Assembly: GCA_000004695.1 (NCBI GenBank)
Contig: CM000152.2
Location: 608,001 to 672,000 of the forward strand
Length of the DNA: 64,000 bases
From: Dictyostelium discoideum
Taxonomy: Eukaryota
Direction: 5' to 3'
Shown: positions 1,122-62,363 of the stretch, in pieces
Numbering within the stretch: the first letter of the stretch is position 1
Layout of the letters: every line of letters begins with the position of its first letter
Made by a program: the position numbers and the translations under genes
The notes under the pieces: model-generated
Seen by the model: only the letters and a program-made list of their open reading frames with translations
Databases searched by the model: none
What the model was told of the DNA's origin: nothing

Positions 1122-1182
<61 letters not shown>

Positions 1183-1519: not shown

Positions 1520-1550
<31 letters not shown>

Positions 1551-3448: not shown

Positions 3449-3449
3449 C

Positions 3450-3509
<60 letters not shown>

Positions 3510-3604
3510 TAATTATAATTTTAAAAAATAAATAAATAAAATAATAATAATAATAATAGTAATATTAATATTAATAATAATAATATAGTTTTAAATTTAT
3601 TTAC

Positions 3605-3752: not shown

Positions 3753-3821
3753 TTTTTATTTATTTATATTATAGAATGGGAAATATTTTTTGAAGTTTTG
3801 TTTATTAAATATGAAAATTAT

Positions 3822-3858
<37 letters not shown>

Positions 3859-4466: not shown

Positions 4467-4967
4467 TTATAATTTAATAATTTTATCAACAATATTTTCA
4501 TAAGCAATTACATCAGGATTAATTGATCTTTGTTCAATAAATGGTGAATCAATATCATTAAATCTAGTACATTTCAATGACCAAGAATAATTACCACCCA
4601 ATATTAATTTCATTGATCTTGTTAAATATTTTAAATCATCTTTCTGATCATCTGGACACTCTTTTAAAAGTAATTCTTCATCTTTACAAATTTCATTAAC
4701 AATTTTGTTATTAAAATTTAAAATTAATTTATAAACTTGATCAAATGAACCAATTTCTTTTTGTAAAAAATATAATGGATTTGTTAAATGACAATTACTT
4801 CTAACTTCTTTTGCATAAGATGCACAATCATTAAATGCTGACATTTGATACGCACCATTACAAACAAATCTTTCAAATCTTGGATTCATCCAAATATTAG
4901 TATCAACTTTTGTATTTGGATTTAAAAGCATAGCCATTGAAAGAGTTACATATGTTCCAGAATTAAC
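4467..4967 (-). CDS. Terpene synthase paralog B, exon 3
   Basis: Reads VNSGTYVTLSMAMLLNPNTKVDTNIWMNPRFERFVCNGAYQMSAFNDCASYAKE...KIIKL*. The NDxxSxxxE motif is present. The acceptor is aaaaag|GTT. Confidence 0.75.
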   Translation of the reverse strand, partial: VNSGTYVTLSMAMLLNPNTKVDTNIWMNPRFERFVCNGAYQMSAFNDCASYAKEVRSNCHLTNPLYFLQKEIGSFDQVYKLILNFNNKIVNEICKDEELLLKECPDDQKDDLKYLTRSMKLILGGNYSWSLKCTRFNDIDSPFIEQRSINPDVIAYENIVDKIIKL

Positions 4968-12716: not shown

Positions 12717-12794
12717 CTTTAATCATTAAAATTAAAATTAATGTTAGTAATAATAATAAAAAATAAATAAATAAATATAATAAATAATACAAAC

Positions 12795-16629: not shown

Positions 16630-17079
16630 TATTTAAAAAGAATTTGATTACTTTTTTTTTTATTATTCTCCAAAAACAGATTTTTTTAATTTTTTTTTTT
16701 TTTGAGATTTTCACTCCGATTTCAAAGCATTATTTGAATTGAACTGTTAGGGTGATGAATTTTTCCCAGCACACACAGAAAAATTATTTTCTAATGGAAT
16801 AGTATTACGGCAAGCCGACAGACACTATATTGTTCCACAATGATTAATCAAAAAATCGAAAAAATTTTATTTTTAAATTAACATAATTTTTTTTTTTTTT
16901 CTTTTTTTTTTATTTTCTTTTTTTTTTTTTTTTTAATGTATAATATTATTTTAATTTTTTAAAATTTTTTTTTTTTTTTTTGGAAATTTGTTCTATAAAT
17001 AATTTGTATTTTTATTTGTCATTATAAAAATTAAGAGTTTTACTTTACTCTTAAATAAATAAATTTGGTTAATTCTCTA

Positions 17080-19133: not shown

Positions 19134-19925
<792 letters not shown>

Positions 19926-20600
19926 TTTTAAAATTTTTTATTTTATTTTTTATTATTCGATTAATAAATAAATCGATACAACATCAAATCGAAATTCAAA
20001 TCTAATTCAAATCTAATTCAAATCTAAATCCGATTCAATTTATTATTAAATTAAAAAATTAAAATAAAATTTAAAATAAAAGAATAGAAAAAAAAACATA
20101 TGGTTTTTTTTTCTTTTTTTTTTTTTGTTAGAAAGTAAATTTTGGTTTTTTTTTTTTGTTTTTTTTTATTTATTTACAAGTTTTTGTTATTAATTTATTT
20201 ATTTTATTTTTATTTTTATTTTATTTTTATTTTTAAAATTTAATATTATAATGACTTCATATTTATTATAATATTTATCTTTTTTATAAAAATTAATAAC
20301 GGTTTTTTTATTTATTTTATTTCCATTAATCAAAAACAATAATCGATTAGTAAAATTTTGAGGTTGAAAATTTAGCCAATTTTTTTTTTTTTTTTTAAAC
20401 AAAAAAATGAATTTTAAATCCTCTTTTTGTGAAGGGTTACAATACCAAAATTAAAAATAATTTTAATTTTATTTTTAATTTTTTTTTTTTAACGACAAAA
20501 AAAATTTTTTTTTTTTTTTTTTAAATTAAAAAAAAAAAAAAAATAAAAATTTGCTAAGTTAATTTATTTTTTAAATTGTAAATAAAACTAAAATAATAAA

Positions 20601-24830
<4,230 letters not shown>

Positions 24831-24970: not shown

Positions 24971-27900
24971 TTAATTTTTAAGGAAATAAATTTCAGCATC
25001 ATTATCTTTAACAATTGAGACAATTTCAGTTGCAAATGAATTTGATGGTGAAGTAGTTTCAGAGAATTGAAGATTGAATAAAATGGTTTCTTTAATGTAA
25101 TCGTTATTATTTTCAATGGCAGTTTTTAATTCAGCTTCTTTAGTATGATAAAACATTGATACTGGATCATCAAAGGTGAGACCACTCTTCTTTCTAAGTC
25201 TTTGAACACGATTGATTAATTCACGAGCCAAACCTTTTTCATAGAGTGCACTATCGACAGTAAGATCTAAAACTGTTAAGATTTCTTCATTACCTGAAGG
25301 TTCAGAGTTTGTAGTTTCACCATTATATTTACGGATGATTTTAAGATCTTCAGAGGTGAGTTCATGACCAAGAATATCGATGGTTTGAGTTTTTTGGAAT
25401 TCACGAAGTTGTTCATTGGTGAGTTTAGAGATTAATGGTGAGATCTTCTTAAAGTCATTCTTTAAACGGGCACCTAAACGTTTGTTATCGGCTTCAGCAG
25501 TGACAACAACGAATGAACCTTCATCACTTGTGAGAACGATATTTTGGATATTTAATTCCTCGAGGATATAAGATTTGAGTGATTCTAAATCGGCGAGATA
25601 TTGTTGATTCTCAGTGATGACCATAAATTCTTTGAGTGGGAATTTAATTGGTTTGGTACGACGATCTCTAGCGGCACGACCCAATTCGATGACAACTTGC
25701 ATACGTGAAATGGCTTCTTCAATTCTAGTGTTGAAAGCTTCTTGAATTGGTTCAGGGAACATAACATAGTGAACTGAATCCATTTGTTTCTCCTTTGGTA
25801 ATGCTTTCTTAAGATTTTGGTACATGTACTCTGTAAAGAATGGAGTGAATGGACCCATAGCAATACAAATGGTCATTAAAACCTCATAGAGGATATTGAG
25901 AGCGGCAAGACAATCGGCATCACCATTTGAACCCTTTAAACGCTTACGATTTAAACGAACGAACCAATTGGTAAGATCTTCAATGAAACGAACCAATTTT
26001 GGTACGACAGTGTATAAACGATAGGCGGCCATTTCTGCACGTACAAATGCAATGAGTGATTGGCAAGAGGCAAGAATCCATTTGTCCATAACATTTTCAG
26101 AGGCAAGAGCAACCTTAATATCTGGTTGGAAAGTGGTGTTGGTAGCTTTTTCAAAACGAAGACAATTTTGAACAAAGAAACGATAGGCGTTAAACCATGG
26201 TAAGAAAACATCTTTGATCATATCTTGAACACCTTTCTCTTGGAATTTCAAAGTTTCAGCTCTAACAACTGGTGAATTGATAAGGTAGAGACGAAGAGAA
26301 TCAGCACCAACCTTTGATACGACTTCCATTGGATCTGGATAATTCTTTAATCTCTTTGACATTTTCTTACCATCAGCAGCTAAAACCAAACCATTAACAA
26401 TGAGATTTTGGAAAGGTGGTTTATCAAAGAGAGCAGTTGATAAAACCAATAGTGTATAGAACCAACCTCTAGTTTGATCAAGACCTTCGGCGATAAAGTG
26501 AGCTGGGAAGATCTTTTCAAATTTATCCTTATTTTCAAATGGATAATGTTGTTGAGCGTATGGCATAGAACCAGATTCAAACCAACAATCGAAAACATCT
26601 TCAATACGACGGAGTGTACCTTTACCTTTTTGTGATGGAATTGTAATATGATCGATTGATTCACGATGAAGATCAGTTACACGAACACCAGAGAGACGTT
26701 CTAATTCGTCGATACTGCCAATGACAACAACTTCTTCACCATCTTCACTAATCCATAATGGGATTGGGGTACCCCAATAACGATTTCTACTGACAGCCCA
26801 ATCTGTTGCATTCTTTAACCAATTTGCAAATCTTTTCTCTTTGACAAAATCTGGTACCCAATAGGTTTTATCATTGTTTGCTAATAATTTATCACGAATT
26901 GATTCGACTCTAACGAACCAACTACCGACTGCTTTGTAGATCAATGGTGTATCTGAACGCCAACAATATGGATAACTATGGACAAGATTTGCACTATTTA
27001 CCATACGACCTTTATTTTTGAGATAAATGCTAATTTGTTTGGTGGTTTCAGCGTCTTTTACCATCATACCAGCGAAATCGGTTACATCACTTGTGAAACA
27101 ACCATTGGCATCGACAGAGTTAAGAATTGGACGTTTGAATTGATCTCTAGAGATGACACCATTGGCAATACAAACATTGAAATCGTCCTCACCATAGGCT
27201 GGTGCAGTATGAACGATACCGGTACCAGAATCATCGGTAACGAAATCACCACCAATAACAACGAAACCACCCATATTGGCATCACTTGCAAAGTATGGGA
27301 ACATTGGTACATACTTTTTACCAATTAAATCTGTGCCTTTCATTGTTTCTAAAACTGTATATTCCTTATCTGATTTGTAGAGGATTGAAGTACGATTTTT
27401 ACCAAGGATAAAGATTTGATTACGTTTGATATCATTGATCTTTATGTATTCCATCTTTGGATTCACAGTCAATGCTAAATTGGATGGAAGGGTCCATGGG
27501 GTGGTGGTCCATGCCAAGATTGAAACTTTCTCATCATCAAGAGTTTGGAATGAAACAACACATGCTGGATCACTTACATCCTTGTAGTTTGATGATGCTT
27601 CAAAGTTTGATAATGGTGTTGTGCAGCCAATTGAGTATGGCATAACTTTGAAACCTTGGTACACCAAATCCTTCTTAAAGAGTTCTTGGAAAACCCACCA
27701 AACACTCTCCATAAATGGTGTGTCCATAGTTTTGTAATTGTTTTTCATATCGATCCAACGACCCATACGATTGACTACGATCTCCCACTCATGTGAATAT
27801 TTCATAACGATTGAACGACAATGTTGATTATATGTTGGAATACCCATCTTTAATACATCCTCCTTGGTTCTAACGCCATGAAGTTTATCAATTTCAAACT

Positions 27901-28164
27901 CAATTGGTAAACCATGACAATCCCATCCAAAACGTCTTTCAACATGATGTCCAGTTTGATGAGCATAACGTGTGATTGTATCTTTAATTGTACCTGCTAA
28001 AATATGTCCATAATGTGGTAAACCTGTTGCAAATGGTGGTCCATCATAAAATGAATACTCTGGTTTACCTTCACTCATTTTTACTGAGGTTTCAAATGCT
28101 TTAATATCATCCCAATATTTTAAAATTTTTGATTCTTCTCCTGCAAAATCAATTTTTTGTGGAA
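24971..28164 (-). CDS. Isoleucyl-tRNA synthetase (cytoplasmic type), exon 2
   Basis: The class-I HIGH motif (PHYGH) and the KMSKS motif (KMSKRLKN) are both present. The ORF extends upstream of the ORF-track Met: VPQKIDFAGEESKILKYWDDIKAFETSVKMSEGKPEYSFYDGPPFATGLPHYGH matches human IARS1 (VPENINFPAEEEKILEFW...FTFYDGPPFATGLPHYGH). The acceptor is aaattttag|TT. Confidence 0.85.
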
Positions 28165-35702: not shown

Positions 35703-35984
35703 AAAAAAATACAAATATATATTTATTCAATTATTAATAAAAATATCATTACAAGTAAACTATTACTATATTTTTATAAAAATCAATATATATATATAAA
35801 TTAATTTAACGTGTATATAAAAATTTTAATTAGTGTGTGATTGTGTGTGTGCGATATTAAAGGATTATTAATAATAATAATAAAAAAAAATAGGAAATTA
35901 ATAAAAAATAAAAAAATAAAAAAAAAAAAAATAATTAATTAATGTATAAAAAAAAGTTATCTAGATTTTATAAAAATTAAAATA

Positions 35985-36104
<120 letters not shown>

Positions 36105-36151
36105 GAATTAAAATAAAAAAAAAAAAAATATATTTATTTATTTATTAAAAA

Positions 36152-39937: not shown

Positions 39938-40079
39938 ATGAATGGAAATAAAAAGATTATAAATCAAATCATTAGGAATGTTGTTCAACAAAACAGTATA
40001 CCCGATGGTACAATGCCAAGTGCAGAGGCATCTTTTGCACTAAATAAATATTTGGATGATCCAAATACTGTAGATTTAG
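39938..40079 (+). CDS. Large unknown protein (about 1150 aa, 5 exons), exon 1
   Basis: Reads MNGNKKIINQIIRNVVQQNSIPDGTMPSAEASFALNKYLDDPNTVDL. The donor is TTA G|gtatgt. Confidence 0.5.
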
Positions 40080-40246
40080 GTATGTTTATACAATTACTAA
40101 TAATAATCATTTATTCTCTATATTATAAATTATTATATATTAATATATTGAATTAATTTTTTCAACTCTAAAATTTTAACACCACACATACATACACACA
40201 TACACACACACACACCACATATAATTAGTTTATATAAATTTAATAG

Positions 40247-40559
40247 AAAGAATTAGAAATGAAAGATCAAATTATGAACAGGTGTTATCAAGAATATTAA
40301 AATTAATAAAGAATAATATAGCAATACATCCACCTTCATGTCAGATATTACTAGATTTGGATAGTTTTTTCTTATTACTTTCGCCTACTTGTGGTTTATT
40401 GGTTCAAAAAACAATTACATATATAAGAGCACTCATTGCTAACCAAGTTAAACAAAACCCAAGTTATGATCACATAAAGAAAACTTTGGTTTTAAATAAT
40501 AATAATATAAATAATAATAGTTTAAATAATAGTCATGGTATTGAGCATAGGTATTTTTT
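40247..40559 (+). CDS. Large unknown protein, exon 2
   Basis: The acceptor taatag|AA restores the GAA codon. Reads ERIRNERSNYEQVLSRILKLIKNNIAIHPPSCQILLDLDSFFLLLSPTCGLLVQKTITYIRALIANQVKQNPSYDHIKK...GIEH. The donor is CAT AG|gtattt. Confidence 0.5.
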
Positions 40560-40641
40560 ATATTTATAAAATCTTCAAAAAAAAAAAAAAAAAATATTTT
40601 ACTTATATATTTTTAAAAATTTTATTTTTATTTATTAAAAG

Positions 40642-40964
40642 CAGTGGTCATAAAAAAACAAATAGTGGAAGTATTGGATTTTTAAGGTATAGAAGTCATT
40701 CAGCGTCAAATTCACAGGTTACCAATAGAGATGATTTTTCATTTCAACGTTCATCATTAGATCTAAGTAATATGTTAGCAACATCAATATCATCAACTAC
40801 ATCATCCAATTCATCCTCATCATCATCATCACCAGTTTCACAAAATGAATCACCTTTAAAAAATACCCTTTTAAGTAATAGTCAAAATAATAATCAAAAT
40901 CATATTAATAATCAAAATCAAAATCAAAATCAAAATCATTTATCTCCGACTTTATCGTCACATC

Positions 40965-41015
<51 letters not shown>

Positions 41016-41183
41016 GTAATAGCAATAGTAATAGTAATAATAATAATAATAATAACAATAACAATAATAATAGTAATATATCTGCGTCCATTAATAGTAA
41101 TAATAGTAATAATGAAACATTAGTATCATCTGTAATATCATCAAAAAATAATAATCATGTATCAAATATAAATAGCAATAGTA

Positions 41184-41234
<51 letters not shown>

Positions 41235-41459
41235 TTGAACAACAACAAAATTCTATATTAACTGGGTCAAATTTAAGTATTGTTGGACATCAGAATAATA
41301 ATGGATTAAGTAATAGTTCAAATCAGCTTGGAGGATCAAATAGTAATATATTAAAAGAAAGTACAAGTTCAGTTTCAAGTAGTGGTTCACCTAACTTTTT
41401 AGTTGATGGCTTTATAAGAGATTTAATGTCTATTAAAGCTTCTTCAAAATCTCAAATTA
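40642..41459 (+). CDS. Large unknown protein, exon 3 (Ser/Asn-rich)
   Basis: Acceptor ttaaaag|C (or cag|T at 40645). Reads SSGHKKTNSGSIGFLRYRSHSASNSQVTNRDDFSFQRSSLDLSN, followed by poly-N/S tracts, then ...SKSQI. The donor is A|gtatgt. Confidence 0.5.
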
Positions 41460-41539
41460 GTATGTAGTTTAATTTATTAATTCATTTATATTTTAAAATA
41501 TACCTAACATTTTTTTTTCTTTTAATAATAATTTTCTAG

Positions 41540-43107
41540 AAGCACAAAGTTTATTAACATATTCACCATTTGGTGGACTAAATAGTCAAAATGAGAATAG
41601 TCCAAAAGCAGTTAATAAGGATATATTTAAATGTCCAGATGATTCACAAAATCATTCAAGAATAAATATAGTTAGAGAATCTAAAAAGAAAGCGGAAAAG
41701 AAAGATCAAACCATTTATACATTTCGAAGAAGAAAACCAGCATTATTTCAATATAAATACTATAAGGATCAAGAGCCATTGAAAATCACTGAACAAGAGA
41801 TAACTCAAGTGGTTAGAGTTATCATTAATCCTGCAACACCACAAGATAGATCAATTGCAACCAAAATATTTATAAAGATCATTTTGGATATTTATTGTCG
41901 TGACGGTTTAGTCGTTCAAAGTTCAGAGAAATTGATTTCAAATTACTTTCATCAATTCATTTCAAGTGTAAATAGAGATACTCGTGCTCATACTTTTAAT
42001 ATTTTATTCAATTTATCAATTCATATTAATCTATATTCAGAATTAAGATTAGAAGATCATCAACAACAACAACAACACCACCACCACCACTCAAATAGTC
42101 AACAACATAATAATAATTTATCAATGATACAAGAATTACACGAGTCAATATTTAGAATAGTAATTGAAATGATTCAATATTTAGTTGATAATAAAGAAAA
42201 AGATGAAAGAACTTGGTCAGAATCATTAAGTTGTGTATTGTTTTTTATAACAGAAGAAGGTGTAGTTCTAAAGGATAAATTGTTCCAATTGAATTCTCAA
42301 ATGATTGCAGCTTTCTTATCAAATATTCAAGATCTAATGAGTGATAGCGTTAGAAGAGTATTAATTAGAATGTTGGCTACTTTTCTTTACAAAGACCCAA
42401 TGGGTAATCATATAAACAATCAAAATAATCTATTGTTTTTAAATGAAGAAGAATTTAATGCAGTTGGTGGTATTCAATTCATACTACAGTTATATACTAC
42501 CGTTAGATCAAGCGAAGCAAAGAATAACCTATTTGTAATTATATTTGATTATGTCCTTCATACAGCTTTAAAGACTCAAACCATTGTTGAAGCTCAAATT
42601 GTAAATGAATCACCATTGCTATTAGAACTCTTTAGAAGATCTGATGCCTCTCATTATTTCACTCAAATTTTCAAATGTATACCAGAACATGGTTTTATTT
42701 CAAAGTTTTTTCTCTACACTTCTGAAGAGGCTAAACATGATTCCTCCTATAGTTACGAAGATTTAATCATAAAGTTCACAATGAAACTTGAAGAATTTGC
42801 AACTCGTTATCAAAGTGTTGATTCAAATTTCGAAAGATTAATAATCGATTGTCAAGAGATACCAGAGAAATATCAACAAATTCTCACTGATTCCTTATCA
42901 AATGAAGATGATGAACAATCATTATTCAACGCTGAAAATTGGTTATTCTTACTCTTAAAGAGAGTTTTAATTGATAAAGATGAAAATTATTCACATTTTA
43001 ATTTCTCCATTAATATTTACTTTCAATTGGCTTCAAATTTAAGTACAAGATTAAGAAGAATTTATATTTCAATAACTGAAAGATTATTATTATTATCAAA
43101 ATTTAGA
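41540..43107 (+). CDS. Large unknown protein, exon 4
   Basis: Acceptor ttttctag|AA. Reads AQSLLTYSPFGGLNSQ...KITEQEITQVVRVIINPATPQDRSIATKIFIKIILDIYCRDGLVVQSSEKL...HQQQQQHHHHH...LSKFR. The donor is AGA|gtaagt. Confidence 0.55.
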
Positions 43108-43110
43108 GTA

Positions 43111-43153
<43 letters not shown>

Positions 43154-43199
43154 AAATTAAAAAGTATTAATTAAATATTTTATTATATATCAACTATAG

Positions 43200-43814
43200 T
43201 TGTCAATAAATGAAACTAAAACAAGTGAAATATTTGATATGTTTAATGAAAGATTTACAAGATTAATTTCTCAAGGTGAAAAATCAGAAAACAATCTTAT
43301 GTATATAGTTGATATTTTATTTGATATGATTTACAAGAGAGCAGGTACAGGTTTATTAAGATCGAAAGAGTCGGTACCAGATACAAATTATTCATTGTTT
43401 TTAACGAATCAATTCGTGGTATCCCTATCACTTTTGAAATTATTTAATATCAATATCATTCAGTATCTATTCAACAATATTCAACACAGTGAAAATACTA
43501 AAGAGCAAAGACTATTCTTGTTACACATTCTAATTCAACGTTGTAAAGATAGTGAAGATTTATTAAAAGTTGGTGGTATTGGATTTTTTAAGAATCTATT
43601 ATCGGATCTTTCAACTCCAATCGCTTACCATTCAAGTTACTTTTTATTGACCCAATTGGAAAATGATTCACCCGAACAATATCGTTCTATCTTGACTCGT
43701 TTACTTCAAAAAGCAAGAGATAACAATAATGAAAATTTACTTTCAAATCCATTTTTCCAAGTTCAAGGTATTGTTGAAATGTCACTTCAACAACCAATTC
43801 AAAATAAAAATTAA
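43200..43814 (+). CDS. Large unknown protein, exon 5
   Basis: Acceptor ctatag|TTG, phase 0. Reads LSINETKTSEIFDMFNERFTRLISQGEKSENNLMYIVDILFDMIYKRAGTG...QNKN*. Confidence 0.55.
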   Translation: MSINETKTSEIFDMFNERFTRLISQGEKSENNLMYIVDILFDMIYKRAGTGLLRSKESVPDTNYSLFLTNQFVVSLSLLKLFNINIIQYLFNNIQHSENTKEQRLFLLHILIQRCKDSEDLLKVGGIGFFKNLLSDLSTPIAYHSSYFLLTQLENDSPEQYRSILTRLLQKARDNNNENLLSNPFFQVQGIVEMSLQQPIQNKN

Positions 43815-43889
43815 ATAATAATTAAAAAATAAATAAATAAAAAAAAAAAAAATAAAAAAATTTAAGCAAACAAATAAAAAAAAAAAAAA

Positions 43890-43953
43890 CCTATGATAAT
43901 AGTAAAAAATATCTATATTAATTAATATAGATATTTTTTACTATTATCATAGG
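43890..43953. repeat. Perfect 64-bp palindrome (inverted repeat with no spacer)
   Basis: cctatgataatagtaaaaaatatctatattaat|taatatagatattttttactattatcatagg is exactly equal to its own reverse complement. Its right arm is KR-domain-like coding sequence of the PKS remnant. Confidence 0.8.
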
Positions 43954-46900
43954 TAATGATAATTTATATAGATTATATGCTCCAACAACTTTTGGATCAT
44001 ATGTTCTATCTAAATGATTCTTATCAATATCTAATATTGGTGAATCAATATTCATAAATTGTTGCCAAATGAATAATTGATGCAACTGGTTCAACATTTT
44101 TATTATTATTGTAGAATGTATTGATTGAATTATTTAAATCATCATAGTTTGAATTTCTATTTTGGTTTATTAGTTTTTTAACTTCCCATTTACAACTTGA
44201 TTTTGAAATTATTATAATATCTTTTAAATGTTTTGGTGCATGATTAATAATCCATTTTGTAATAATTGGTGAAATACTAGTTTGACCAGTAATTAATAAA
44301 GTTGATGGTAATGAATTAATTTCATAATTTGTTTTGATAATGGTCTTATTAATTGTAGAGTTTGAAATAAATTGATCAAAGTTTTGGAAATCAACAACAA
44401 TTTTACCAATGTGTTTTCTATCATTAACATAATAAATTGCTTTTTTTGTTTTTTCGACATAAAATTCTGAAATTGGGATCATTTCTAATTTACTATTGCC
44501 AATATCTCTAAATTATTCTGATAAAATATTAGTAATTCTTGGATTATGTTTACAAACTCTTTCAATATCTATTGTATTATAACCAACATTAAATTTGAAA
44601 TTATTTAAATCAACATTATCATTATCAATTAATTGAGTCATTGATAAACATGAAATTCTTCCAATTTCACTCAATGCATCAAAATTATATTTCAAAAATT
44701 CAACTGATAAAGTATCTAAAATCAAATCAACACCCTTTCCATTAATTTCTTTAATTCTATCACTAAACCTTTTTGATAGTGAACTTGTTTCAGTTGAAAG
44801 TATTTTTGTAATAATATCACCATAATTTTCTAATAGATATTGTTTCTTTTCTTTTGATCCACCAATTGTTACAAAAACATTACCACAATGTTCTTTAGAT
44901 TTTAATAATTTCAATGCAGCCAAACCAACACCGCCACATGCCGAATGGATTAATACTGATTCATCCTTTTCCAATCTACCTAAATGATATAGTGAATAAT
45001 ATGAACTCATATATACCATTGGAATTGATGCTGGTTCAACAAATGATATATTGGTTGGTTTATGAACGAACTAAACGAATGTGGAATTAAACTGGCTACT
45101 TGCTCGTTTAATTTAAATTTGGTAACTTTAGAACCAACTTTTGTTATGATACCAGAACATTCCAAACCTAAAGGTGGATTATAGATATTTCTTTTTGCAA
45201 AAATTTCTTGTGGTAATAATGCTCTCGTTGTTAAATCAGTTCTAAAATAAAATTCAACTTTGTATTTATTTTTTGAACTTGGGAATAAATTTGTTTGTAA
45301 TTTATATCTATTTCCTTCAGTGATAAAAACTGGTAATTTTTTAAATTATGAATTAATATATCTTTTCGTTTGAAAATGTTCGATATATTATCAATGTATC
45401 CACTTCCTGGGAATAAAACTTTTCCTTTAACTCTATGATCATTTAAAAATTTATACATTTTATTTGATGTATCAATTATTGAATGATAAGTTTCGACACC
45501 ATTTATTGATTTTCTACCTTAAATATCAACTGATGGACCTTCTAAAATTTTCTTTTTACTTTTTAATGGATATGACCAATGGATTTCATCATCCCATTGA
45601 TATCTTGGTAGCGATGATGTTGAATCCTTATAGAATTTATCATTTAGTTCTTTTTGATTAAATTGACTTTCAAAATTTAAATTTAAACCAAATCTATTCA
45701 ACGACATGATTGTTGAATTAAAAGAATCAATTTGAGAAGACATCTTCTTATTTAAACTTGTCAAAATTAATGGTTTCAAATTTTTATCTGATGGGATTGA
45801 TTTTTTAATATAATATGCTAATGTTGGAGTTGGTGCTATCTCAATAATAACTGGGTTTTTAAATGATGAATCTTGTTGGTTATCTAAATATTCAAATATT
45901 GATTTAATTGCCTTATTGAATTGTACAGGATTTCTAATATAATTATAAATGTAATCAACATTCATTTGTGATTTTTCAGTTAATTGATCACCATAATGAG
46001 TTGAGAATAATACCTTCATTGGTTTATTTGCATATTTCATATTTATTAAATCTGGGTTATAGAAACCATCTTTAATAATTTCTTGTTTTGATGAATGGAA
46101 TGCAGTGAGTGAACTTAATAATGAAGAGAATATATTATTATTTTGTAAAATAGTTGACAATGATTTTAATTCATTTTCATCACCTGAAACTACGATTGAA
46201 TCTTCAGAATTAAAACATGAAATTTCTAAATTCGGATAACTATTTGAATATTTATTGATTCCTTTTCTCTTAAACCAATTGATAACATTCTACCCATCCT
46301 ACAGTTTTATTTTGAAGCATTGCTCTATAGTAAGAAATGGTGCATGCAGTTTCCAAATCAATAATATTTGAGCAATATGCGGCTGCAACTTCACCAAAGG
46401 AATGACCTAAAATAATTGATGGTTCAATACCCCAACTTTAATATAATTCAACTATTGAAATTTGTAAAAAAAAGAGATATGATTGTGCATTTATTGGTTA
46501 TTAATTTCAATACTATTTGCTGATAATGAATTAACATGTTGGAATACAGAATATTTAAAATGATTTGGTAACATTTTATCAACTTTTATTAATGTGTTTC
46601 TATATAATTCATTATTTTCATATAATTCATTATGCATACCAATATATTGAGGTCCTGCAAAAACAAATATGATTGATGTTTGTTTAACTGGTTTTGAAAT
46701 CTGAAATTGTTGATGGAGATAAAGTTATTGATTTTTCAATTTCATTTAAATCATTCCAATTATTTACCGATACAATATTACGAGCACCAGAAAATATTGT
46801 TTTTGATAAACAATGCTTTTTAACAAAATCTTTAAATTTCATTTTTCCAGAACATGAACCAATATTTTCTTTAATTGTATTTAAATATCTATCTAAAGAA

Positions 46901-47339
46901 TTTATTGAATTTGATGAAAATGGGATTAAATAATTTCTTTCACATTTTCACTTTTTATCTTTTTCAATAAATCTTGGAGGTTCTTCTAAAATTAAATGAA
47001 CATATGATCCAGACATACCAAAATTATTAATTCCAATTGCAACTGGTATTTTTAAATTGTTTGGAAAATCTTCTAATTCTGTTTGAACTTTTAAATTCCA
47101 TTCATCAATTTTAATTTTTGGATTGATTCTTTCAAAATGAATGTTTGGAATGAATTTTTTATATTTTAAACTTAAACAAACTTTAATAAATGAACCAACA
47201 CCACTTGCTGCTTCCATATGGCCAATGTTGGTTTTAACTGAACCAATTCTTAATGGATTTGATTTTGAATGATGATCTTTAAAAACCATTGAAACAGATT
47301 CTACCTCGGTTGGATCACCAGTTGGAGTACCATAATCCT
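43922..47339 (-). pseudogene. Polyketide synthase pseudogene remnant, truncated at both ends and interrupted by frameshifts (KS C-term, AT, DH, ER, KR N-term)
   Basis: In the 5'→3' direction on the minus strand the fragments are as follows. KS: DYGTPTGDPTEVESVSMVFKDHH...GSVKTNIGHMEAASG. AT: SWGIEPSIILGHSFGEVAAAYCS and ...IRNPVQFNKAIKSI...VIIEIAPTPTLAYYIKK. DH: LNDHRVKGKVLFPGSGYID. ER: FVEPASIPMVYMSSYYSLYHLGRLEKDESVLIHSACGGVGLAALKLL. KR: LLITGQTSISPIITKWIIN...DPKVVGAYNLYKLSLPMI. These pieces lie in different frames separated by stops, for example 1-nt frameshifts near 45050 and 44045. Each domain is shorter than in intact Dictyostelium PKS genes. No upstream KS exon or downstream ACP is present. 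Confidence 0.65.
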
Positions 47340-47950: not shown

Positions 47951-48498
47951 TTAAGGAGAAGAATCGGCTCGATCTTTTAGAATTAAATTTAATAAAGAAT
48001 ATGAAGATGTTAAAGTTTTTCTATTTTTTCTCTTTTTATAAATAACAACCAAGGCTATAACTATTATTAAAATACCAGCTGGAGTTCCTATTGACAATGA
48101 AAGTATTAATGCTAAATGGTTTGGTCTATTATATTTTCCTCTGTCATCATAAAATGTTGGCTTGATTGGGAAAAATGAAAAATCATATTCATATCTCTGA
48201 TTTTCAATTGATTGTTCAATATATTCATTATTCAATTCTTTATTTATAGCATAATTATTATTATTAGGTATGATTTGATCTAATTGGAAATTAAAATTAA
48301 AAGTAAATGATTTAATTTCATGAGGTTTAATTTGAATAGTTTCAATTGTTTTGTTGTTTTCACCTTTATTCTCACCATCAATAATATTATTTGTTCCATT
48401 ATTTGAGAAAATAATTGATGATGGTTTTTCATTTATAAATGAATATTCTGATTCACCACATTTGACTGGGAATTTTTTATTTATTCTTGTTGAATATT
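47951..48498 (-). CDS. GH38 alpha-mannosidase copy 1, exon 4 (C-terminal, with TM anchor)
   Basis: Acceptor taattag|AA. Reads KYSTRINKKFPVKCGESEYSFINEKPSSIIF...NNEYIEQSIENQRYEYDFSFFPIKPTFYDDRGKYNRPNHLALILSLSIGTPAGILIIVIALVVIYKKRKNRK...*. Near-identical to exon 4 of copy 2. Confidence 0.75.
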
Positions 48499-48587
48499 CT
48501 AATTATTATTTTATTTTATTTTTTTTTAAAAAAAAAGTTAGTAAAAATTCTAATAAATAGAAAATAATAATTTTATAATGTACATAC

Positions 48588-51181
48588 TATCAATTAAATT
48601 ATTTTTTGTTAATTTTAAAAAAGATAAACCAGTTTCAATAAAGTTTGATATTTCTAATTCGTTAAATAATGTTGATTTATCGGTATCAGTAGTAGATTGA
48701 GTATTTGAATCAACTTCATGAATATTGAATAATCTTAAACCGACTGTATTGTTTTTTAATGTTAATAATGATTGTAAATGAATATTTGAAGGTAATTGAT
48801 TTGATAATGGTGAATATTTTAATAAATAACCAGTTTGATTATTGTGTTTTTTGACAAACATAATTGGTTGATTTGTAATATGTAAACTTATTCTTTTTTC
48901 ATTTTGTAATTGATTATTAACCAAATCCATATTAAAGTATAATTTAGCATCACTTCTTCCAATATCTTTACTTGGCCAATTTACTCCTTTCCAATCATCA
49001 GTATCCATAGTTCTATGAATCATAATTTCCATTTCGCCATCTGATGGTGATGTTGCGCCAACTGATCTATCTACATAAACTGTATATTGATGATTATTAT
49101 TTTCTGAGGTTTCTTTTAATTTTATATAACCTAAAACTGGGTAATAATTTTGATTGACAGTTCTATCATGATTGTAAATTCTTTTTCTAGATTCTAAACC
49201 ATTATCAGTATAAAATATATCATCATTTTCAAGATCTTTTACTTTATAATTGATTGTTGTTTCTCTATTCATATCACCGTTAATTGAATAACCAGTTTCA
49301 ATGTAATTCTCTGTGATTAATGATTTGCTATTACTATTATCGATTTCATTGTTTTTATAAATTCTTTGAACTACAATCGATGTTACATTGCAACCATCAT
49401 CTACACCATATAACATTGTTAATTGAGATACTAATGGGCCATCGTGGTAGATGAATTTATCAGGGTTCTCTAAGAATCCGTGTTTTTTACCACCTTTAAC
49501 ATTGAAAATGTATGGACCACTCTTTTTAGTTGAATATTGATGGAATGTTTGTTCGATTGTTTTAATTTCATTTGAATTTTTATCAGTTATTTTACTTATT
49601 AAACCATTTGATTCGAATTCTACTTTGAATCTATTATTATTAAAATTAATTTCATTTCCTTTTTTCAATAGTTTTGGTTTTGATAAAATGGTATTTGGTT
49701 TTGAATCTTCATTACTAGAAATACTTAGATAATAAGTATTTAAACCTAATGGTGGTAAATTAATAATTGCAAATACAATATAATTATTTTCAATTGATTG
49801 ACAATTTGAATCATCTTGAATTGGTATTATTTGAATTTGAATTGTTTTATTTGATATAGCTTCAACCAATTGAATTGATTCTAATAATTGATTATCATTT
49901 TTATTAACTTTTATTCTAAATGAAACATGTTGGTTAACTTCCCAACCTAATGTATTGTGGAATACTAATGAATATTGATTATTTATTTCATTTGATAAAT
50001 CTATTACATTTTCAAAATTGAATGGTTCATTTGTACTGTCTGTATTTTCATTATTATTATTATCTTTATTTAATAAATATTCTAAAGAATTTGAAATGAT
50101 ATTATAATTTGAAATTCTTGATTTTTGTAATCTTTGGAAATTATCATTTAAAACAAATGATCTTGAAGTACCTGTAACAATATCATGATGTTGAACCAAT
50201 GCTATTGTATTTCTATTTTCATTTAATTGATTTGATAACGTTTGTAAATTATTAATATCGATTTGATTATTTGAATTTTCGCCAATTGCTAAAGTGTATA
50301 ATATATCTGATGATTTTTGTAAAAGACTTGATTCTCTAATCAATCTTTTTAACAATGGTCTTGTTGTATAATATCCTGTCCAATATTCTAAATCACCAGT
50401 TGAATATGGAAAGAAATCTTTATTATATAATGATAATGTTGATGAAAAACCTGTCTTTAAATTCTCCTCTACAGTTTTACCAAGTTTATTCATAAATTCG
50501 TCCTCTAAAGCAATGAAATATTCATCTATTGTTGCATATTTAATTTCTTTTATATTATACTTTTCTTTATTATCTTGAATAACTTTTAACCATTCTTTTG
50601 AAACTGAAAATTCATTTTTTGCATTTGAATATCTGAAATCATCACCCAATGGAATCATTAGTATGCTTGATTCTCTGGTATTTGATAAATCTTTAATATA
50701 TTTAGTGAATCCTTTAACACGCTCTTCTAATGAAAAATCTTTCTTTGGGTCAATATGCTTTGGATAATCATAATGAACATTTAATGTGGAAACTAACATT
50801 TGTGATTGTTCTCCTAATGATTCTGAACCTTTCCATATGAATTCCATTTCTTTGGCTGATTTCATATAAGATTTAACATCATCTGAAACACGATTAATAA
50901 TTAATCCTTTTATACCCATACTTGAAAAAATGGTTGGTGTTGATGATGAATATCCAAATGGATCGATTTGCCATGCATATTCTATTGTATAGTTAAGTGT
51001 ATCTTTTAACCATTGATGGCCTTGTGTCATTTGTGTTATAACATCATCAATTGTTGCTGTTGCTTCATCATTTTGTACCCATCCACCACTAATAAATGAT
51101 AGTTGTTTATTATTTATTAAATTTCTAACAATTTCTCTTTGATTTTCATTTCGGTCATTCCACCACCTACTAAAAAATCCA
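48588..51181 (-). CDS. GH38 alpha-mannosidase copy 1, exon 3 (catalytic core)
   Basis: Acceptor cacag|T. Reads IGFFSRWWNDRNENQREIVRNLINNKQLSFISGGWVQNDEATATIDDVITQMTQGHQWLKDTLNYTIEYAWQIDPFGYSS.... These are the GH38 core motifs. The donor is GAT A|gtatgtacat. Confidence 0.85.
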
Positions 51182-51320
51182 CTGTGAGTGTGTAAAATAT
51201 AAAAAAAAGGAATAAAAAAAAAAATGGAAAAATAAAAAAAAGAAAAAGGGTGGTTAGTGGGAATAAATAAAAAAAAAATAATAATAATAATAAAGAAGTT
51301 GGAAAATATAAAAACCATAC

Positions 51321-51412
51321 ATTTCTACCCAATTAAATTTCTTTTCTTTATCTAAATTTAATTCATTCACAATACCTGATAAAATATATTGAACAACATG
51401 ATTATAATACCA
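51321..51412 (-). CDS. GH38 alpha-mannosidase copy 1, exon 2
   Basis: Acceptor aaatacag|TGG. Reads WYYNHVVQYILSGIVNELNLDKEKKFNWVE. The donor is AT|gtatgg. Together with the next exon this rebuilds the conserved ...VEIAFFSRWW block. Confidence 0.75.
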
Positions 51413-51489
51413 CTGTATTTAAAATAATTGTTAGAAAAGAAAATAAAAAAATGACTAATAATTAAAACTAAAAAAAACTCAATACAAAC

Positions 51490-51738
51490 GTCATAATCTT
51501 GTAACCAACCACTATCACAATGAGAATGGGGTATTAAAAATATAGATAATTTTTCATCTTTTAAATCTCCATTTAATTGGAATATCTTTTTTAAACTTTG
51601 AGAATTATTATTATAATTTACTATTTCAAAATTTTCATTATAAATATTGATAATAAAAGTTGATAACAAAATCCATACTCCAATAACAAATATAATTTTA
51701 ATTAATTTGGTTTTATTCATTTCTTTTATTTTTAACAT
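51490..51738 (-). CDS. GH38 alpha-mannosidase copy 1, exon 1
   Basis: Starts at ATG 51738. The second ATG at 51720 aligns with the start of copy 2. It encodes a signal/TM segment and then ...SIFLIPHSHCDSGWLQDYD, the GH38 HxxPHSHxDxGW motif. The donor is GAC|gtttgt. Confidence 0.75.
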
Positions 51739-52401
51739 TTATTTTTGGATTTCAAAATAAAAAAAAATCATTGACATAAAAAACACCAAGAAAAAAAAAA
51801 AGTATTAAAAAATATAATATAAAAAAAAAAATTACACGAAAATAAAAAAAAAACAACACCAAAATAAAAAAAAATTTAATTTTTTGGAAAATATCGTCAT
51901 ATAGCAAAAAAAAAAAAATTGTGATGTTTCAAAAAGTAAAAAAACGTCATAAAAAAAACAAAATTCCTAAAAATTCAGACTATCAGACAAAAGTAAGTGA
52001 ATTGATTTCCTACCTTTTGAGGTTTTTATGTTTTAGATTGGGTGAGGAAATATTCGTAGAGAATTTAATTGTAAAAAAAAAAAAAATTTTAAATTAAAAA
52101 TAATAAAAATAAAATTAAAAAAAAAAAAACCTTAATATCCACAGGAAAATATCTTGGACTTTCAAGAAATTTTTTTTTTTACAACCTTTTTTTTCATTTT
52201 TTAAAAAACTCAATATTTTGGATGGTTTACAACCGCTGGAATATATGAAGATAAAAAATATTTTTTGTTTTTTTTTTTTTTTATTTTTATTTTTAGCTTA
52301 TTTTACATTTTTTTATTTTATTTTATTTTATTTTTTGATTTTTATTTTTATTTTGATTGTTTTTTTATTTTTTTATTTTTATTTTTAAATTATTATTATT
52401 T

Positions 52402-52964
52402 TTAAGGAGAATAATCAGTTTGGTCTTCTTGTTGAATTAAATTTGATGAAGAATTTGAAGATGTTAAAGTTTTTCTATTTTTTCTCTTTTTATAAGTAAC
52501 AACCAAGGCTATAACTATTATTAAAATACCAGCTGGAATTCCTATTGACAATGAAAGTATTAATGCTAAATGGTTTGGTCTATTATATTTTCCTCTGTCA
52601 TCATAAAATGTTGGCTTGATTGGGAAAAATGAAAAATCATATTCATATCTCTGATTTTCAATTGATTGTTCAATATATTCATTATTCAATTCTTTATTTA
52701 TAGCATACTTATTATTATTATTATTATTATTAGGTATGATTTGATCTAATTGGAAATTAAAATTAAAAGTAAATGATTTAATTTCATGAGGTTTAATTTG
52801 AATAGTTTCAATTGTTTTGTTGTTTTCACCTTTATTCTCACCATCAATAATATTATTTGTTCCATTATTTGAGAAAATAATTGATGATGGTTTTTCATTT
52901 ATAAATGAATATTCTGATTCACCACATTTGATTGGAAATTTTTTATTTATTCTTGTTGAAAATT
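52402..52964 (-). CDS. GH38 alpha-mannosidase copy 2, exon 4
   Basis: Acceptor aattag|AA. Reads KFSTRINKKFPIKCGESEYSFINEKPSSIIF...TM segment...TYKKRKNRKTLTSSNSSSNLIQQEDQTDYSP*. The cytoplasmic tail differs from copy 1. Confidence 0.75.
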
Positions 52965-53047
52965 CTAATTATTATTTTATTAATTTTTTTTAAAAAAAAA
53001 AAAAAGTTAGTTAAATTCTAAATATATATATATAATATTGTACATAC

Positions 53048-54587
53048 TATCAATTAAATTATTTTTTGTTAATTTTAAAAAAGATAAACCAGTTTCAATA
53101 AAGTTTGATATTTCTAATTCGTTAAATAATGTTGATTTATCGGTATCAGTAGTAGATTGAGTATTTGAATCAACTTCATGAATATTGAATAATCTTAAAC
53201 CGACTGTATTGTTTTTTAATGTTAATAATGATTGTAAATGAATATTTGAAGGTAATTGATTTGATAATGGTGAATATTTTAATAAATAACCAGTTTGATT
53301 ATTGTGTTTTTTGACAAACATAATTGGTTGATTTGTAATATGTAAACTTATTCTTTTTTCATTTTGTAATTGATTATTAACCAAATCCATATTAAAGTAT
53401 AATTTAGCATCACTTCTTCCAATGTCTTTACTTGGCCAATTTACTCCTTTCCAATCATCAGTATCCATAGTTCTATGAATCATAATTTCCATTTCGCCAT
53501 CTGATGGTGATGTTGCGCCAACTGACCTATCTACATAAACTGTATATTGATGATTATTATTTTCTGAGGTTTCTTTTAATTTTATATAACCTAAAACTGG
53601 GTAATAATTTTGATTGACGCTTCTATCATGATTGTAAATTCTTTTTCTAGATTCTAAACCATTATCAGTATAAAATATATCATCATTTTCAAGATCTTTT
53701 ACTTTATAATTGATTGTTGTTTCTCTATTCATATCACCGTTAATTGAATAACCAGTTTCAATGTAATTCTCTGTGATTAATGATTTGCTATTACTATTAT
53801 TGATTTCATTATTATTTTTATAAATTCTTTGAACTACAATCGATGTTACATTACAATAATCATCTACACCATATAACATTGTTAATTGAGATACTAATGG
53901 GCCATCGTGGTAGATGAATTTATCAGGGTTCTCTAAGAATCCGTGTTTTTTACCACCTTTAACATTGAAAATGTATGGACCACTCTTTTTAGTTGAATAT
54001 TGATGGAATGTTTGTTCGATTGTTTTAATTTCATTTGAATTTTTATCAGTTATTTTACTTATTAAACCATTTGATTCGAATTCTACTTTGAATCTATTAT
54101 TATTAAAATTAATTTCATTTCCTTTTTTCAATAATTTTGGTTTTGATAAATAGGTGAAATTTGATTTTGAATCTTCGCTATTAGCAATACTTAAATAATA
54201 AGTATTTAAACCTAATGGTGGTAAATTAATAATTGCAAATACAATATAATTATTTTCAATTGATTGACAATTTGAATCATCTTGAATTGGTATTATTTGA
54301 ATTTGAATTGTTTTATTTGATATAGCTTCAACCAATTGAATTGATTCTAATAATTGATTATCATTTTTATTAACTTTTATTCTAAATGAAACATGTTGGT
54401 TAACTTCCCAACCTAATGTATTGTGGAATACTAATGAATATTGATTATTTGATTCATTTGATAAATCTATTGCATTTTCAAAATTGAATGGTTCACTTTT
54501 ATTTACAGTATTATTATTATTATTACTACTACCACTACCACTACTACTGCTACTACCTGTTGTACTAATACTATTTGTATTTTTAAG

Positions 54588-54642
<55 letters not shown>

Positions 54643-55818
54643 TTATTATTATTATTATTTGTTTTGTTATTACTTTTATTTAATAAATATTCTAAAGAAT
54701 TTGAAATGATATTATAATTTGAAATTCTTGATTTTTGTAATCTTTGGAAATTATCATTTAAAACAAATGATCTTGAAGTACCTGTAACAATATCATGATG
54801 TTGAACCAATGCTATTGTATTTCTATTTTCATTTAATTGATTTGATAACGTTTGTAAATTATTAATATCGATTTGATTATTTGAATTTTCGCCAATTGCT
54901 AAAGTGTATAATATATCTGATGATTTTTGTAAAAGACTTGATTCTCTAATCAATCTTTTTAACAATGGTCTTGTTGTATAATATCCTGTCCAATATTCTA
55001 AATTACCAGTTGAATATGGAAAGAAATCTTTATTATATAATGACAATGCTGATACCTCATCATCACCATCACTAAAAGTTTCAGTGTAAACATTTTGTTT
55101 TCTACTTTTACCAAATTTATTATTTCTCAAGAAACTATCCTCCAAAGCAATGAAATATTCATCTAAAGTTGCATATTTAATTTCTTTGATATTGTAATAT
55201 TCTTTATTATCTTGTAAAGCTTTTACCCACTCTTTTGAAACTGAAAATTCAGTTTTTGCATTTGAATATCTGAAATCATCACCTAATGGAATCATTAGTA
55301 TGTTTGACTCTCTAGTTTTTGATAAATCATTGAGATATTTAGTGAATCCTTTGATACGATCATTTAATGAAAAATCTTTCTTTGGGTCAATATGTTTTGG
55401 ATAATCATAATGGATATTTAATGTGGAAACTAACATTTGTGATTGTTCTCCTAATGATTCTGAACCTTTCCATATGAATTCCATTTCTTTGACTGATTTC
55501 ATATAAGATTTAACATCATTTGAAACACGATTAATAACTAATCCTTTTATACCCATACTTGAAAAAATGGTTGGTGTTGATGATGAATATCCAAATGGAT
55601 CGATTTGCCATGCATACTCTACTGTATAGTTAAGTGTATCTTTTAACCATTGATGGCCTTGTGTCATTTGTGTTATAACATCATCAATTGTTGCTGTTGC
55701 TTCATCATTTTGTACCCATCCACCACTAATAAATGATAATTGTTTATTATTTATTAAATTTCTAACAATTTCTTTTTGAATTTCATTTTGGTCATTCCAC
55801 CACCTACTAAAAAATCCA
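53048..55818 (-). CDS. GH38 alpha-mannosidase copy 2, exon 3
   Basis: The same acceptor and donor as in copy 1. The frame is open from GFFSRWWNDQNEIQKEIVRNLINNKQLSFISGGWVQNDEATATIDDVITQMTQGHQW.... It is 177 nt longer than exon 3 of copy 1 because of an Asn/Ser-rich insertion around 54500-54700. Confidence 0.85.
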
Positions 55819-60575: not shown

Positions 60576-62363
60576 TTATTTTTTACTTTTACCAAAAAAT
60601 CTTGAGGAAGATTTTTTTTCATCTTTTTTCTTGGATTTATTATCTTCATCGATTAAGTTATTATCCAATTCGATGATAGTTTTAGTAGGGATTGAATTAT
60701 TACCTTGAAGATGATTATAGGATAAAGAGATAGTTGAGGAGGATCTAATTGGAGATGATTGGAAAGATAAAGAAGCAGTATGAGAACGACGTGGTTTCAA
60801 AGGGAATAACTCTTTCAAAGAGTCAATTCTATCTTGAATTTGTTGATGTAAAACCTGATGAAGTATTTTCTCTTCTGGATCGAAAATTTCGAGATCTGAT
60901 TGATTAAAGTATAACTGTTTCCAAACCTTGAATCTCTTTATGGAGCAATCAGGAAAGATGACATCACGCTCCTTTATGCCGGTTGGCTGATAGAGAGGGT
61001 TGATGTACTCTTTTAGATTGCCGTCCATCTCTGCCCAAAGACTGATGGTTTTGCCATAGATATGGTTTTGCACTCTCTCTTTCTCTGTGTTGAATAAAAA
61101 GTTACCATATTTGCCACTGTAGGAATGATAAAGTATAGTTTTCAAAAAGTTTGCATTAAATTCGAATTTGCTTGGAAATTGATGAATGATTTGGTAGCAT
61201 GCCTCAATGAATTGGTAGAGTATGGGTGATTGCTCACTCTCGTCTTTACCATGAACTTGACCACAACGTTGAGCGAATTTATGACCGAAACTAAGCCACT
61301 CCTTTTCAATTAGGATTTGAAAGCCTCTAATGGTTCTAAAGTATGGGTCTAGCAAAAGTTCAGCCAATGAGACCAATTGTGATGTTCTATCCCATCCATC
61401 ACTACAATGTACCAATACATTGTGATGTTGTAAATGAATTAGTTTTGCCAATCTAGTTGCACCTTGAATCACCAATTTAATATGACCAAACCAACCACTA
61501 GATTCCAATTGATTGAACCAGCCATCTTCCTTATCAATGGATGATACTGCTGCATCTTTAATCTTCCAAAGGGAATGTCTCATTGAATGAATATTTGCAA
61601 TATTTAAAAACTCTAATGTACAACCTGGATAATTATTTAATATCTCCCATCCTGCACCTTTTGCACGATTACCAACTGCATTTGCATATGGTCTACAATC
61701 TAATATATACAATGTTCTATCTGAACTATTATTTTCTTTATTACTACCACTACCGCTACCTCCGCTACCTCCACTACTACCACTACCAGCAGTACTTGTC
61801 ATACGAATTGAATTTAATAAATTTTCATCCTCAGTTGAACGATTACCACCAATGCCAACCATTGGCTGACTACAACGAGTGATTGAGCATTTATTAGACC
61901 AATGTCTATAGGAGAGTACTGGTATTCTACCTTTACTACGAAATTGTGCAACACTTTTCAATTGTTCATCAGTGATTGATTCTGGAACACCCATTAATCC
62001 TGGATAACTATCACAAATGAAATAGTTATAATTTGCATCTGATACTCTCCAATCTGGTGATGGTACACCCATACGTGCATATTCATCACGTGCACTATAC
62101 AATGTCCATCCTAATCCAACCAACTCCAATCTAGTATACTCTTGTCTAAGATTATAACAAAACAATGTTGTTGGACTTGTACTTTGATATTGTTCAATAC
62201 ATCCTCTAACATCTTTTAAACTTGAATTACTCTTATCAAATGAAATACTATGAATTCTATAATCCTTACAAATGAAATTTAATCTATATGAAAATTCACC
62301 ACCACCTTGTTTCTTTTTACCATTTTTAGTTAATTTTGAAATAGTATGTAATGAAAAATGTTT
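60576..62363 (-). CDS. Myotubularin-family phosphoinositide 3-phosphatase, exon 3 (phosphatase domain)
   Basis: Acceptor aaaaaag|AAA. Reads KHFSLHTISKLTKNGKKKQGGGEFSYRLNFICKDYRIHSISFDK...LFCYNLRQEYTRLE...RIPVLSYRHW...VLVHCSDGWDRTSQLVSLAELLLDPYFRTIRGFQILIEKEWLSFGHKF. The CX5R active site is HCSDGWDRT. Confidence 0.85.
   Translation of the reverse strand, partial: KHFSLHTISKLTKNGKKKQGGGEFSYRLNFICKDYRIHSISFDKSNSSLKDVRGCIEQYQSTSPTTLFCYNLRQEYTRLELVGLGWTLYSARDEYARMGVPSPDWRVSDANYNYFICDSYPGLMGVPESITDEQLKSVAQFRSKGRIPVLSYRHWSNKCSITRCSQPMVGIGGNRSTEDENLLNSIRMTSTAGSGSSGGSGGSGSGSNKENNSSDRTLYILDCRPYANAVGNRAKGAGWEILNNYPGCTLEFLNIANIHSMRHSLWKIKDAAVSSIDKEDGWFNQLESSGWFGHIKLVIQGATRLAKLIHLQHHNVLVHCSDGWDRTSQLVSLAELLLDPYFRTIRGFQILIEKEWLSFGHKFAQRCGQVHGKDESEQSPILYQFIEACYQIIHQFPSKFEFNANFLKTILYHSYSGKYGNFLFNTEKERVQNHIYGKTISLWAEMDGNLKEYINPLYQPTGIKERDVIFPDCSIKRFKVWKQLYFNQSDLEIFDPEEKILHQVLHQQIQDRIDSLKELFPLKPRRSHTASLSFQSSPIRSSSTISLSYNHLQGNNSIPTKTIIELDNNLIDEDNKSKKKDEKKSSSRFFGKSKK

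Follow-up and report, generated by a model that had tools for sequence, protein, structure and literature searches.

A perfect 66-bp palindrome at the truncated 3' end of a Dictyostelium discoideum PKS pseudogene, a probable scar of fold-back repair

Several processes are known to leave inverted symmetry in DNA. In quasi-palindrome (Ripley-type) mutagenesis, an imperfect inverted repeat is made perfect by the copying of one of its arms. P-nucleotide-like additions, which occur at V(D)J coding ends and in hAT excision footprints, create spacerless palindromes, usually of a few nucleotides, and the PATRRs are AT-rich fragile palindromes hundreds of bp long. In snap-back SD-MMEJ, a 3' end that has been resected folds at a short inverted repeat serving as primer; once extended, it unwinds and anneals by microhomology, so that its insert comes to lie within a new and longer inverted repeat (PMC5728401, PMC2943611). 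D. discoideum encodes both PolQ (DDB_G0277749) and DNA ligase III, which are alternative end-joining genes (PMC8529158). Here we describe a spacerless palindrome that interrupts the 3' end of a decayed type-I PKS gene of this amoeba, and we compare it with intact orthologues from two sister lineages. Positions are those of the window, the whole 64-kb stretch of DNA that was analysed, which exact protein matches (KAM9948837.1) assign to D. discoideum.

Extent and authenticity of the palindrome

Window positions 43889-43954 form a perfect spacerless palindrome of 66 bp, identical to its own reverse complement, with 33-nt arms that are complementary at 33 of 33 positions and with its centre between 43921 and 43922. 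A preliminary description of the locus had reported self-complementarity without a spacer for 43890-43953; this holds, and perfect pairing reaches 1 bp further on each side. The palindrome is 85% A+T, relative to 78% for the whole window, and is far beyond chance. Elsewhere in the 64 kb, perfect palindromes have arms of at most 12 nt, and the longest of them are homopolymer or dinucleotide (A/T, CA/TG) runs. Markov-1 simulations of the window (n = 30) gave maximum arms of 9-13 nt, and palindromes with arms of at least 33 nt are expected about 6e-12 times per window, or about 3e-9 times per 34-Mb genome. As single-stranded DNA, the palindrome folds into a hairpin of 31 pairs with an energy of -27 kcal/mol (z = -9 to -13 vs shuffles). 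No second copy of either arm was found elsewhere in the 64-kb window at up to 3 mismatches. An Rfam search with the palindrome returned nothing above threshold; its sub-threshold match to mir-754, at 28 bits against a gathering score of 84, reflects hairpin shape alone. A scan for bacterial-type promoters and terminators, a type of scan irrelevant to a eukaryotic host, gave nothing meaningful.

Palindromes can be created during assembly, and the preliminary description had raised this concern. The same 66 bp are present, letter for letter, in a 6.43-Mb contig (L002) of NCBI assembly GCA_054883475.1. Over 12.4 kb this contig differs from the window by 6 indels and by no substitutions, and it is therefore a separate assembly of the same laboratory lineage. 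L002 and the two 'cf. discoideum' assemblies described below (L003 and L004) are very probably among the Nanopore-plus-Illumina genomes of Holland et al. 2025 (PMC12745789), an attribution made from organism names and dates.

Read data from a second genotype point the same way. A variant open reading frame, P0006, is present in 10 Logan contigs, and five Logan contigs from five runs (SRR26869256/57/68/66/47) were fetched and compared. They are mutually identical, and so represent one further genotype only, with 0.53% substitutions relative to the window. Four of the five stop at window position 43925, which, given a 33-nt arm, is the furthest that a k=31 unitig can reach from the right before its k-mers become common to the mirrored arm. 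The fifth (L001) reaches 43907, which lies 15 nt, or (k-1)/2, beyond the centre, where a k=31 path folds back on itself. Because this contig runs past the centre to 43907, reads of the 0.53%-diverged genotype include the central junction; in that genotype, reads support both the central 31-mer of the palindrome and its 33-nt arm length. Thus, an assembly artefact is refuted by the presence of the palindrome in an independent chromosome-scale assembly (L002) and by Logan contig ends that fit the breaks a real palindrome causes at k=31.

The PKS remnant, its neighbours and its intact orthologues

On the minus strand, positions 43955-47332 hold the pieces of a type-I PKS, recognized by Pfam matches: the C-terminus of KS, AT, the N-terminus of DH, ER and the N-terminal two thirds of KR, with KR matched no further than position 123 of the 180 in its profile. 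HMMER, run exhaustively and profile-free with the remnant's ER-KR product as query, found P0126, a protein of 2275 aa and 84% identity from 'Dictyostelium cf. discoideum'; its 2278-aa relative P0276 comes from a second 'cf. discoideum' assembly. The next-nearest relatives found were from Acytostelium (52% identical) and Tieghemostelium (47% identical). Neither the KR fragment nor the last exon of the convergent neighbouring gene had a match in word-indexed protein searches, and the same kind of search with P0004 returned only distant bacterial and fungal ER/KR proteins. Alignment to these distant proteins was ambiguous as to LPMIIV being a KR strand, a point that the orthologue found by HMMER settled.

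Both sister contigs, L003 and L004, are syntenic with the window, with two GH38 mannosidase genes upstream, the PKS, a convergent gene and then a peptidase S28 gene. Each carries an intact KS-AT-DH-ER-KR-ACP synthase, at 10001-17008 in L003 and at 6001-13029 in L004. Substitution differences over 6-10 kb are 4.2% between the window and L004, 6.2% between the window and L003, and 6.2% between L003 and L004. Of the two sister contigs, L004 is therefore the nearer to D. discoideum, and they serve as successive outgroups.

Relative to L003, the PKS remnant is a multiply damaged pseudogene with at least six lesions, of which the 3' truncation is one. Exon 1 is gone; the KS domain has lost about 700 bp, with the junction near 47330 (47330-47332) at an ATGG microhomology; a 1756-bp deletion with AGA homology at its junction, 45226 (45225-45227), has removed the DH C-terminus and linker; KR carries a 36-nt in-frame deletion at about 44150; and a +4 insertion (ATTG) at 44045-44048 creates a TGA stop at 44045-44047. 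Only residues 320-1026 and 1605-2058 of P0126 have counterparts in the window. The ATGG and AGA junctions of two of these deletions are simple short-homology joins, and among the lesions an inverted templated insert is found at the 3' junction only. The last PKS-derived sequence is a frame-shifted KR tail (SPILDIDKNHLDRTYDPKVVGAYNLYKLS) at 43955-44043 on the minus strand; by tblastn, P0126 residues 2027-2058 match window 44043-43948 with 94% identity.

The neighbour that converges on the PKS is a multi-exon gene on the plus strand at 39938-43814, called as 1148 aa in the L002 annotation and with orthologues in L003 and L004. Its 3' end was untouched by the event, and its stop-codon region is conserved relative to L003 and L004. 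The 139-bp gap between the end of the pseudogene and the intact 3' end of this gene holds the palindrome, which lies 75 nt 3' of the stop codon; the A/T-rich intergenic DNA between the two (43815-43888) aligns with the T-run region of L003 and L004.

Some further features of the region were recorded. The two tandem GH38 alpha-mannosidase genes of the window, at 48240-51847 and 52376-55667, share about 96% DNA identity. The tandem pair is also found in L003 (1-3364 and 4006-7794), and the duplication, being common to a 'cf. discoideum' outgroup, therefore predates the decay of the PKS. In L002, the deposited annotation of 1-4964 merges a mannosidase gene and the KS/AT fragments into a single 1649-aa 'gene', which is probably a gene-model error caused by the pseudogene. 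Elsewhere in the window, GC-rich blocks at 12744-14057, 24971-28078 and 60576-62165 (GC 0.36-0.41 vs about 0.2 elsewhere) are housekeeping genes, encoding a coatomer-like WD40 protein, a class-I tRNA synthetase and a myotubularin phosphatase; they are conserved, and are not transposons, RNA genes or foreign DNA. No tRNA genes were found in the 64-kb window. Long coding repeats of the AAT/CAA type (poly-Asn/Gln), at 19700-19930, 21025-21230, 35970-36130 and 40870-41250, cross-match each other and L002 and L003; they are typical Dictyostelium low-complexity sequence and clutter BLAST output.

Breakpoint and polarity of the inverted copy

The intact orthologues locate the breakpoint precisely. 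P0126 reads ...GAYNLYKLSL-QLKWNLKQFLLFSSVASITG... and continues through the rest of KR and the ACP, whereas the window reads ...GAYNLYKLSL-PMIIVKNIYIN followed by a stop codon, in place of the KLSL-QLKWNLKQFLLFSS of P0126. In DNA, two colinear blastn blocks pair window 45225-43953 with L003 15014-16349 and window 43939-40876 with L003 17032-20143. Nothing in the window corresponds to L003 from 16350 to about 17031-17049 (682-700 bp), and the matching part of L004 is absent from it too. The alignments thus establish that about 0.7 kb was lost from the end of the PKS: the C-terminal part of KR, which includes the catalytic Tyr region, together with the ACP and the stop codon. At the KR breakpoint the outgroups read ...TCATTAC/AATTAAA (L003) and ...TCTTTAC/AATTAAA (L004), where the window reads ...TCATTAC/CTATGATAATAGT..., that is, TCATTAC/CTATG.

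The left arm of the palindrome (43889-43921) aligns as ancestral intergenic DNA of the PKS 3' flank, orthologous to L003 17049-17080 and L004 13067-13095. In PKS orientation it reads TTAATATAGATATTTTTTACTATTATCATAGGT. Relative to L003 (TTTATATAGATATTTTTTATTATTAT..AGT), 24 of 26 nt are identical, L004 is similar, and the alignment runs on through the shared T-run as far as the convergent gene, whose 3' end is conserved. Since the left arm is orthologous to outgroup intergenic DNA, it follows on this alignment that the left arm was the template and the right arm (43922-43952) the mirror copy: 31 nt of newly made inverted sequence, not counting the microhomology. The outer 14 nt of the right arm (CCTATGATAATAGT, minus strand) have no counterpart in L003 or L004, and its inner part resembles the upstream half-repeat of the outgroups, AAAAA(TG)ATATCT(T)TATT, only imperfectly.

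At 43953-43954 (minus strand), the dinucleotide AC is common to the KR breakpoint, TTAC, and to the end of the copied tract, so that by alignment the nascent end and the other break end overlap by 2 nt; the blastn block stops at 43953. A microhomology of 2 nt is weak evidence, because it is expected fairly often by chance in 78% A+T DNA. The window sequence results exactly when KR...TCATT is followed by the left arm in reverse complement, with the AC overlap, and then by the left arm itself and the T-run. At the centre of the palindrome (43918-43925) the sequence reads TTAATTAA, a self-complementary octamer that may have been the site of snap-back priming. L004 has TTAATTA just 5' of the conserved ATATAGATAT core; L003 is without TTAATTA.

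These alignments bear on several earlier claims. The preliminary description had placed the palindrome at the 3' breakpoint of the PKS remnant and had proposed a comparison with related strains and species; its position is exact when set against the intact orthologues, and the sister lineages do have an intact KR-ACP continuing at that point. It had also read the right arm as KR coding sequence and the left arm as the mirror copy, which reverses the polarity: homology to the orthologues ends at KLSL, or ...TCATTAC (43953), at the outer edge of the right arm, and it is the left arm that matches outgroup DNA past the PKS stop. The open frame across the right arm is a coincidence of 11 codons. 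Nor is the KR tail simply in frame with the upstream fragments, as had been stated, since the +4 insertion near 44045 shifts the frame.

In the outgroups, the region 3' of the PKS stop codon contains a weak imperfect inverted repeat, AAAAAATGATATCTTTAT paired with ATATAGATATTTTTT, which folds no better than shuffles (z = -0.7 and -1.2). A 20-nt indel (AGTAAACTTTTTAATTATTG; L004 13050-13069 vs L003 17048) lies between the half-repeats in one outgroup only, so lineages differ by indels in this intergenic quasi-palindrome. Because both successive outgroups have the intact gene and the weak quasi-palindrome, by parsimony these are the ancestral state, and the deletion and the perfect palindrome are derived in D. 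discoideum. In time, the event falls after the split from L004, at 4% divergence, and before that of the two D. discoideum genotypes, at 0.5%; no allele of intermediate state was found. At 0.5% divergence, about 0.3 substitutions are expected in 66 bp. There has been little time at the strain scale, so the perfect preservation of the palindrome needs no special explanation.

Fold-back repair, rival explanations and known systems

We consider it probable that the palindrome is the mutational scar of one fold-back event, rather than a functional element or residual coding sequence; the earlier suggestion of a fold-back or hairpin-type rearrangement that truncated the gene is the best explanation of a palindrome at this breakpoint. 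The ancestor would have had an intact type-I PKS (KS-AT-DH-ER-KR-ACP) and an A/T-rich 3' flank with the weak inverted repeat and a TTAATTA(A) mini-palindrome, reading ...TTAATTAATATAGATATTTTTTACTATTATCATAGG without a mirror arm. A break or a stalled fork between mid-KR and the intergenic stretch may have left a 3' single-stranded end. This end would have folded onto itself at the self-complementary TTAATTAA and been extended for about 30 nt on its own strand, thereby mirroring the intergenic ...TATAGATATTTTTTACTATTATCATAGGT. Through the 2-nt AC/GT microhomology, the 3' end so made (...GGT) could then have annealed to the KR end (...TCATTAC) and been ligated. The net outcome would be the loss of about 0.7 kb and the gain of a perfect spacerless 66-bp palindrome. 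We infer that deletion and copying were one event, as in snap-back SD-MMEJ of Pol-theta type, and likewise the priming site at TTAATTAA and the enzyme. Against snap-back repair, few reported inserts are as long as the 31-33 nt copied here, the 2-nt microhomology is weak, and L003 is without TTAATTA. Typical experimental snap-back inserts are shorter than this.

No double-strand break would be needed if replication had switched template twice, in FoSTeS/MMBIR-like fashion or as an extended quasi-palindrome correction. Replication would stall in KR at ...TTAC, switch through the AC microhomology to the complementary strand about 0.7 kb downstream, copy about 31 nt backwards to the TTAATTAA centre, and then switch back. 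The product has the same sequence as that of snap-back repair, so that sequence alone cannot separate the two. In addition, the weak imperfect inverted repeat of the outgroups is a classical quasi-palindrome substrate, and the inner right arm looks like a 'perfected' version of their upstream half-repeat. However, classical quasi-palindrome corrections alter few bases and do not come with a deletion of about 700 bp, two switches are required, and no sequence feature prefers this route over break repair; we therefore regard it as unlikely. Off-centre opening of a hairpin-capped end would give a spacerless palindrome too, and the sequence by itself does not tell it from break repair. It is also conceivable, but we think quite improbable, that the changes came in two steps, the full palindrome arising first, downstream of a still intact PKS and perhaps with a structural or terminator-like role, with a later break and a deletion ending exactly at its outer edge. 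Long palindromes are known fragile sites, which makes a breakpoint at a palindrome edge plausible, and there is no deletion-free allele among the D. discoideum alleles compared. Against such a sequence of events, both successive outgroups are without the outer arm and their hairpin is non-significant, and two events are invoked where one suffices. Moreover, the L004 stop codon directly adjoins the upstream half-repeat, so an outward extension of 15 nt would overwrite the last PKS codons.

A fold-back from the PKS side, with the right arm as residual KR coding sequence and the left arm as its mirror, could appeal to the 11 open codons in the frame of the KR tail and to a loose likeness of LPMIIV to the KR strand 'LDFFVLFSS'. 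It has next to no probability in our view and is refuted by the orthologues, which read KLSL-QLKWNLKQFLLFSS; DNA homology ends at TTAC, and the left arm is the orthologous one. Equally implausible are a mobile element of palindromic form (a MITE or foldback-type insertion) and an assembly artefact. Foldback elements do typically show perfect inverted symmetry, and chimeric clones or reads can create palindromes, but an artefact is at odds with the independent chromosome-scale assembly and with the reads of another genotype. As for a MITE or foldback transposon, which we rejected, there is no target-site duplication (the flanks are A14 vs TAATGA), no second copy in the window, and no match to the outer 14-mer ACTATTATCATAGG in L003 or L004, and resident intergenic DNA accounts, by orthology, for half of the palindrome. 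Finally, we give very little weight to the notion that the palindrome serves a function, whether transcribed as a perfect 33-bp hairpin (in 3'-end formation or as a Dicer substrate) or kept perfect by intra-palindrome conversion as a cruciform-forming fragile site or replication barrier; the analysis gave no sign of such a role.

The class of mutation to which fold-back repair belongs is already known. This case is long (31-33 nt) and tidy, and it is a clean natural example in that the outgroups show both what the ancestral sequence was and in which direction it was copied. On this reading, a model amoeba has lost a secondary-metabolite gene partly through fold-back templated repair. The same junction architecture has been attributed to Pol-theta-type end joining in animals and plants, which suggests that this pathway, for which Dictyostelium has the genes, has left scars in the evolution of its genome. 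A synthase lost from D. discoideum is retained by the 'cf. discoideum' isolates, and the species may differ in their polyketide chemistry on this account. The locus also holds a practical lesson: an open reading frame through such a structure is no proof of coding ancestry, and the assembled palindrome is genuine. As the locus is a decayed pseudogene, it opens no new question.

The present palindrome compares with described systems as follows. Like the scars of snap-back SD-MMEJ and Pol-theta repair (PMC5728401, PMC2943611), it combines a deletion with an insert that is reverse-complementary to sequence flanking the break, and it has a candidate self-complementary primer site at the start of the insert and a short microhomology at its end; it differs in its tract of 31-33 nt, in being perfectly spacerless and in being a fixed evolutionary event. 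With quasi-palindrome correction it shares the passage from an imperfect repeat, seen in the outgroups, to the perfect arms of the window, but here the copy runs about 15 nt past the old repeat and is coupled to a loss of about 0.7 kb. P-nucleotide-like additions likewise give a spacerless palindromic junction and are far shorter than the present case; the palindrome site shows no sign of a hairpin-forming transposase, of terminal inverted repeats or of a target-site duplication. PATRRs are AT-rich perfect palindromes as well, and the palindrome described here could similarly extrude a cruciform. In contrast to PATRRs, however, it is much shorter at 66 bp and shows no recurrent rearrangement, being identical in the two D. 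discoideum genotypes available.
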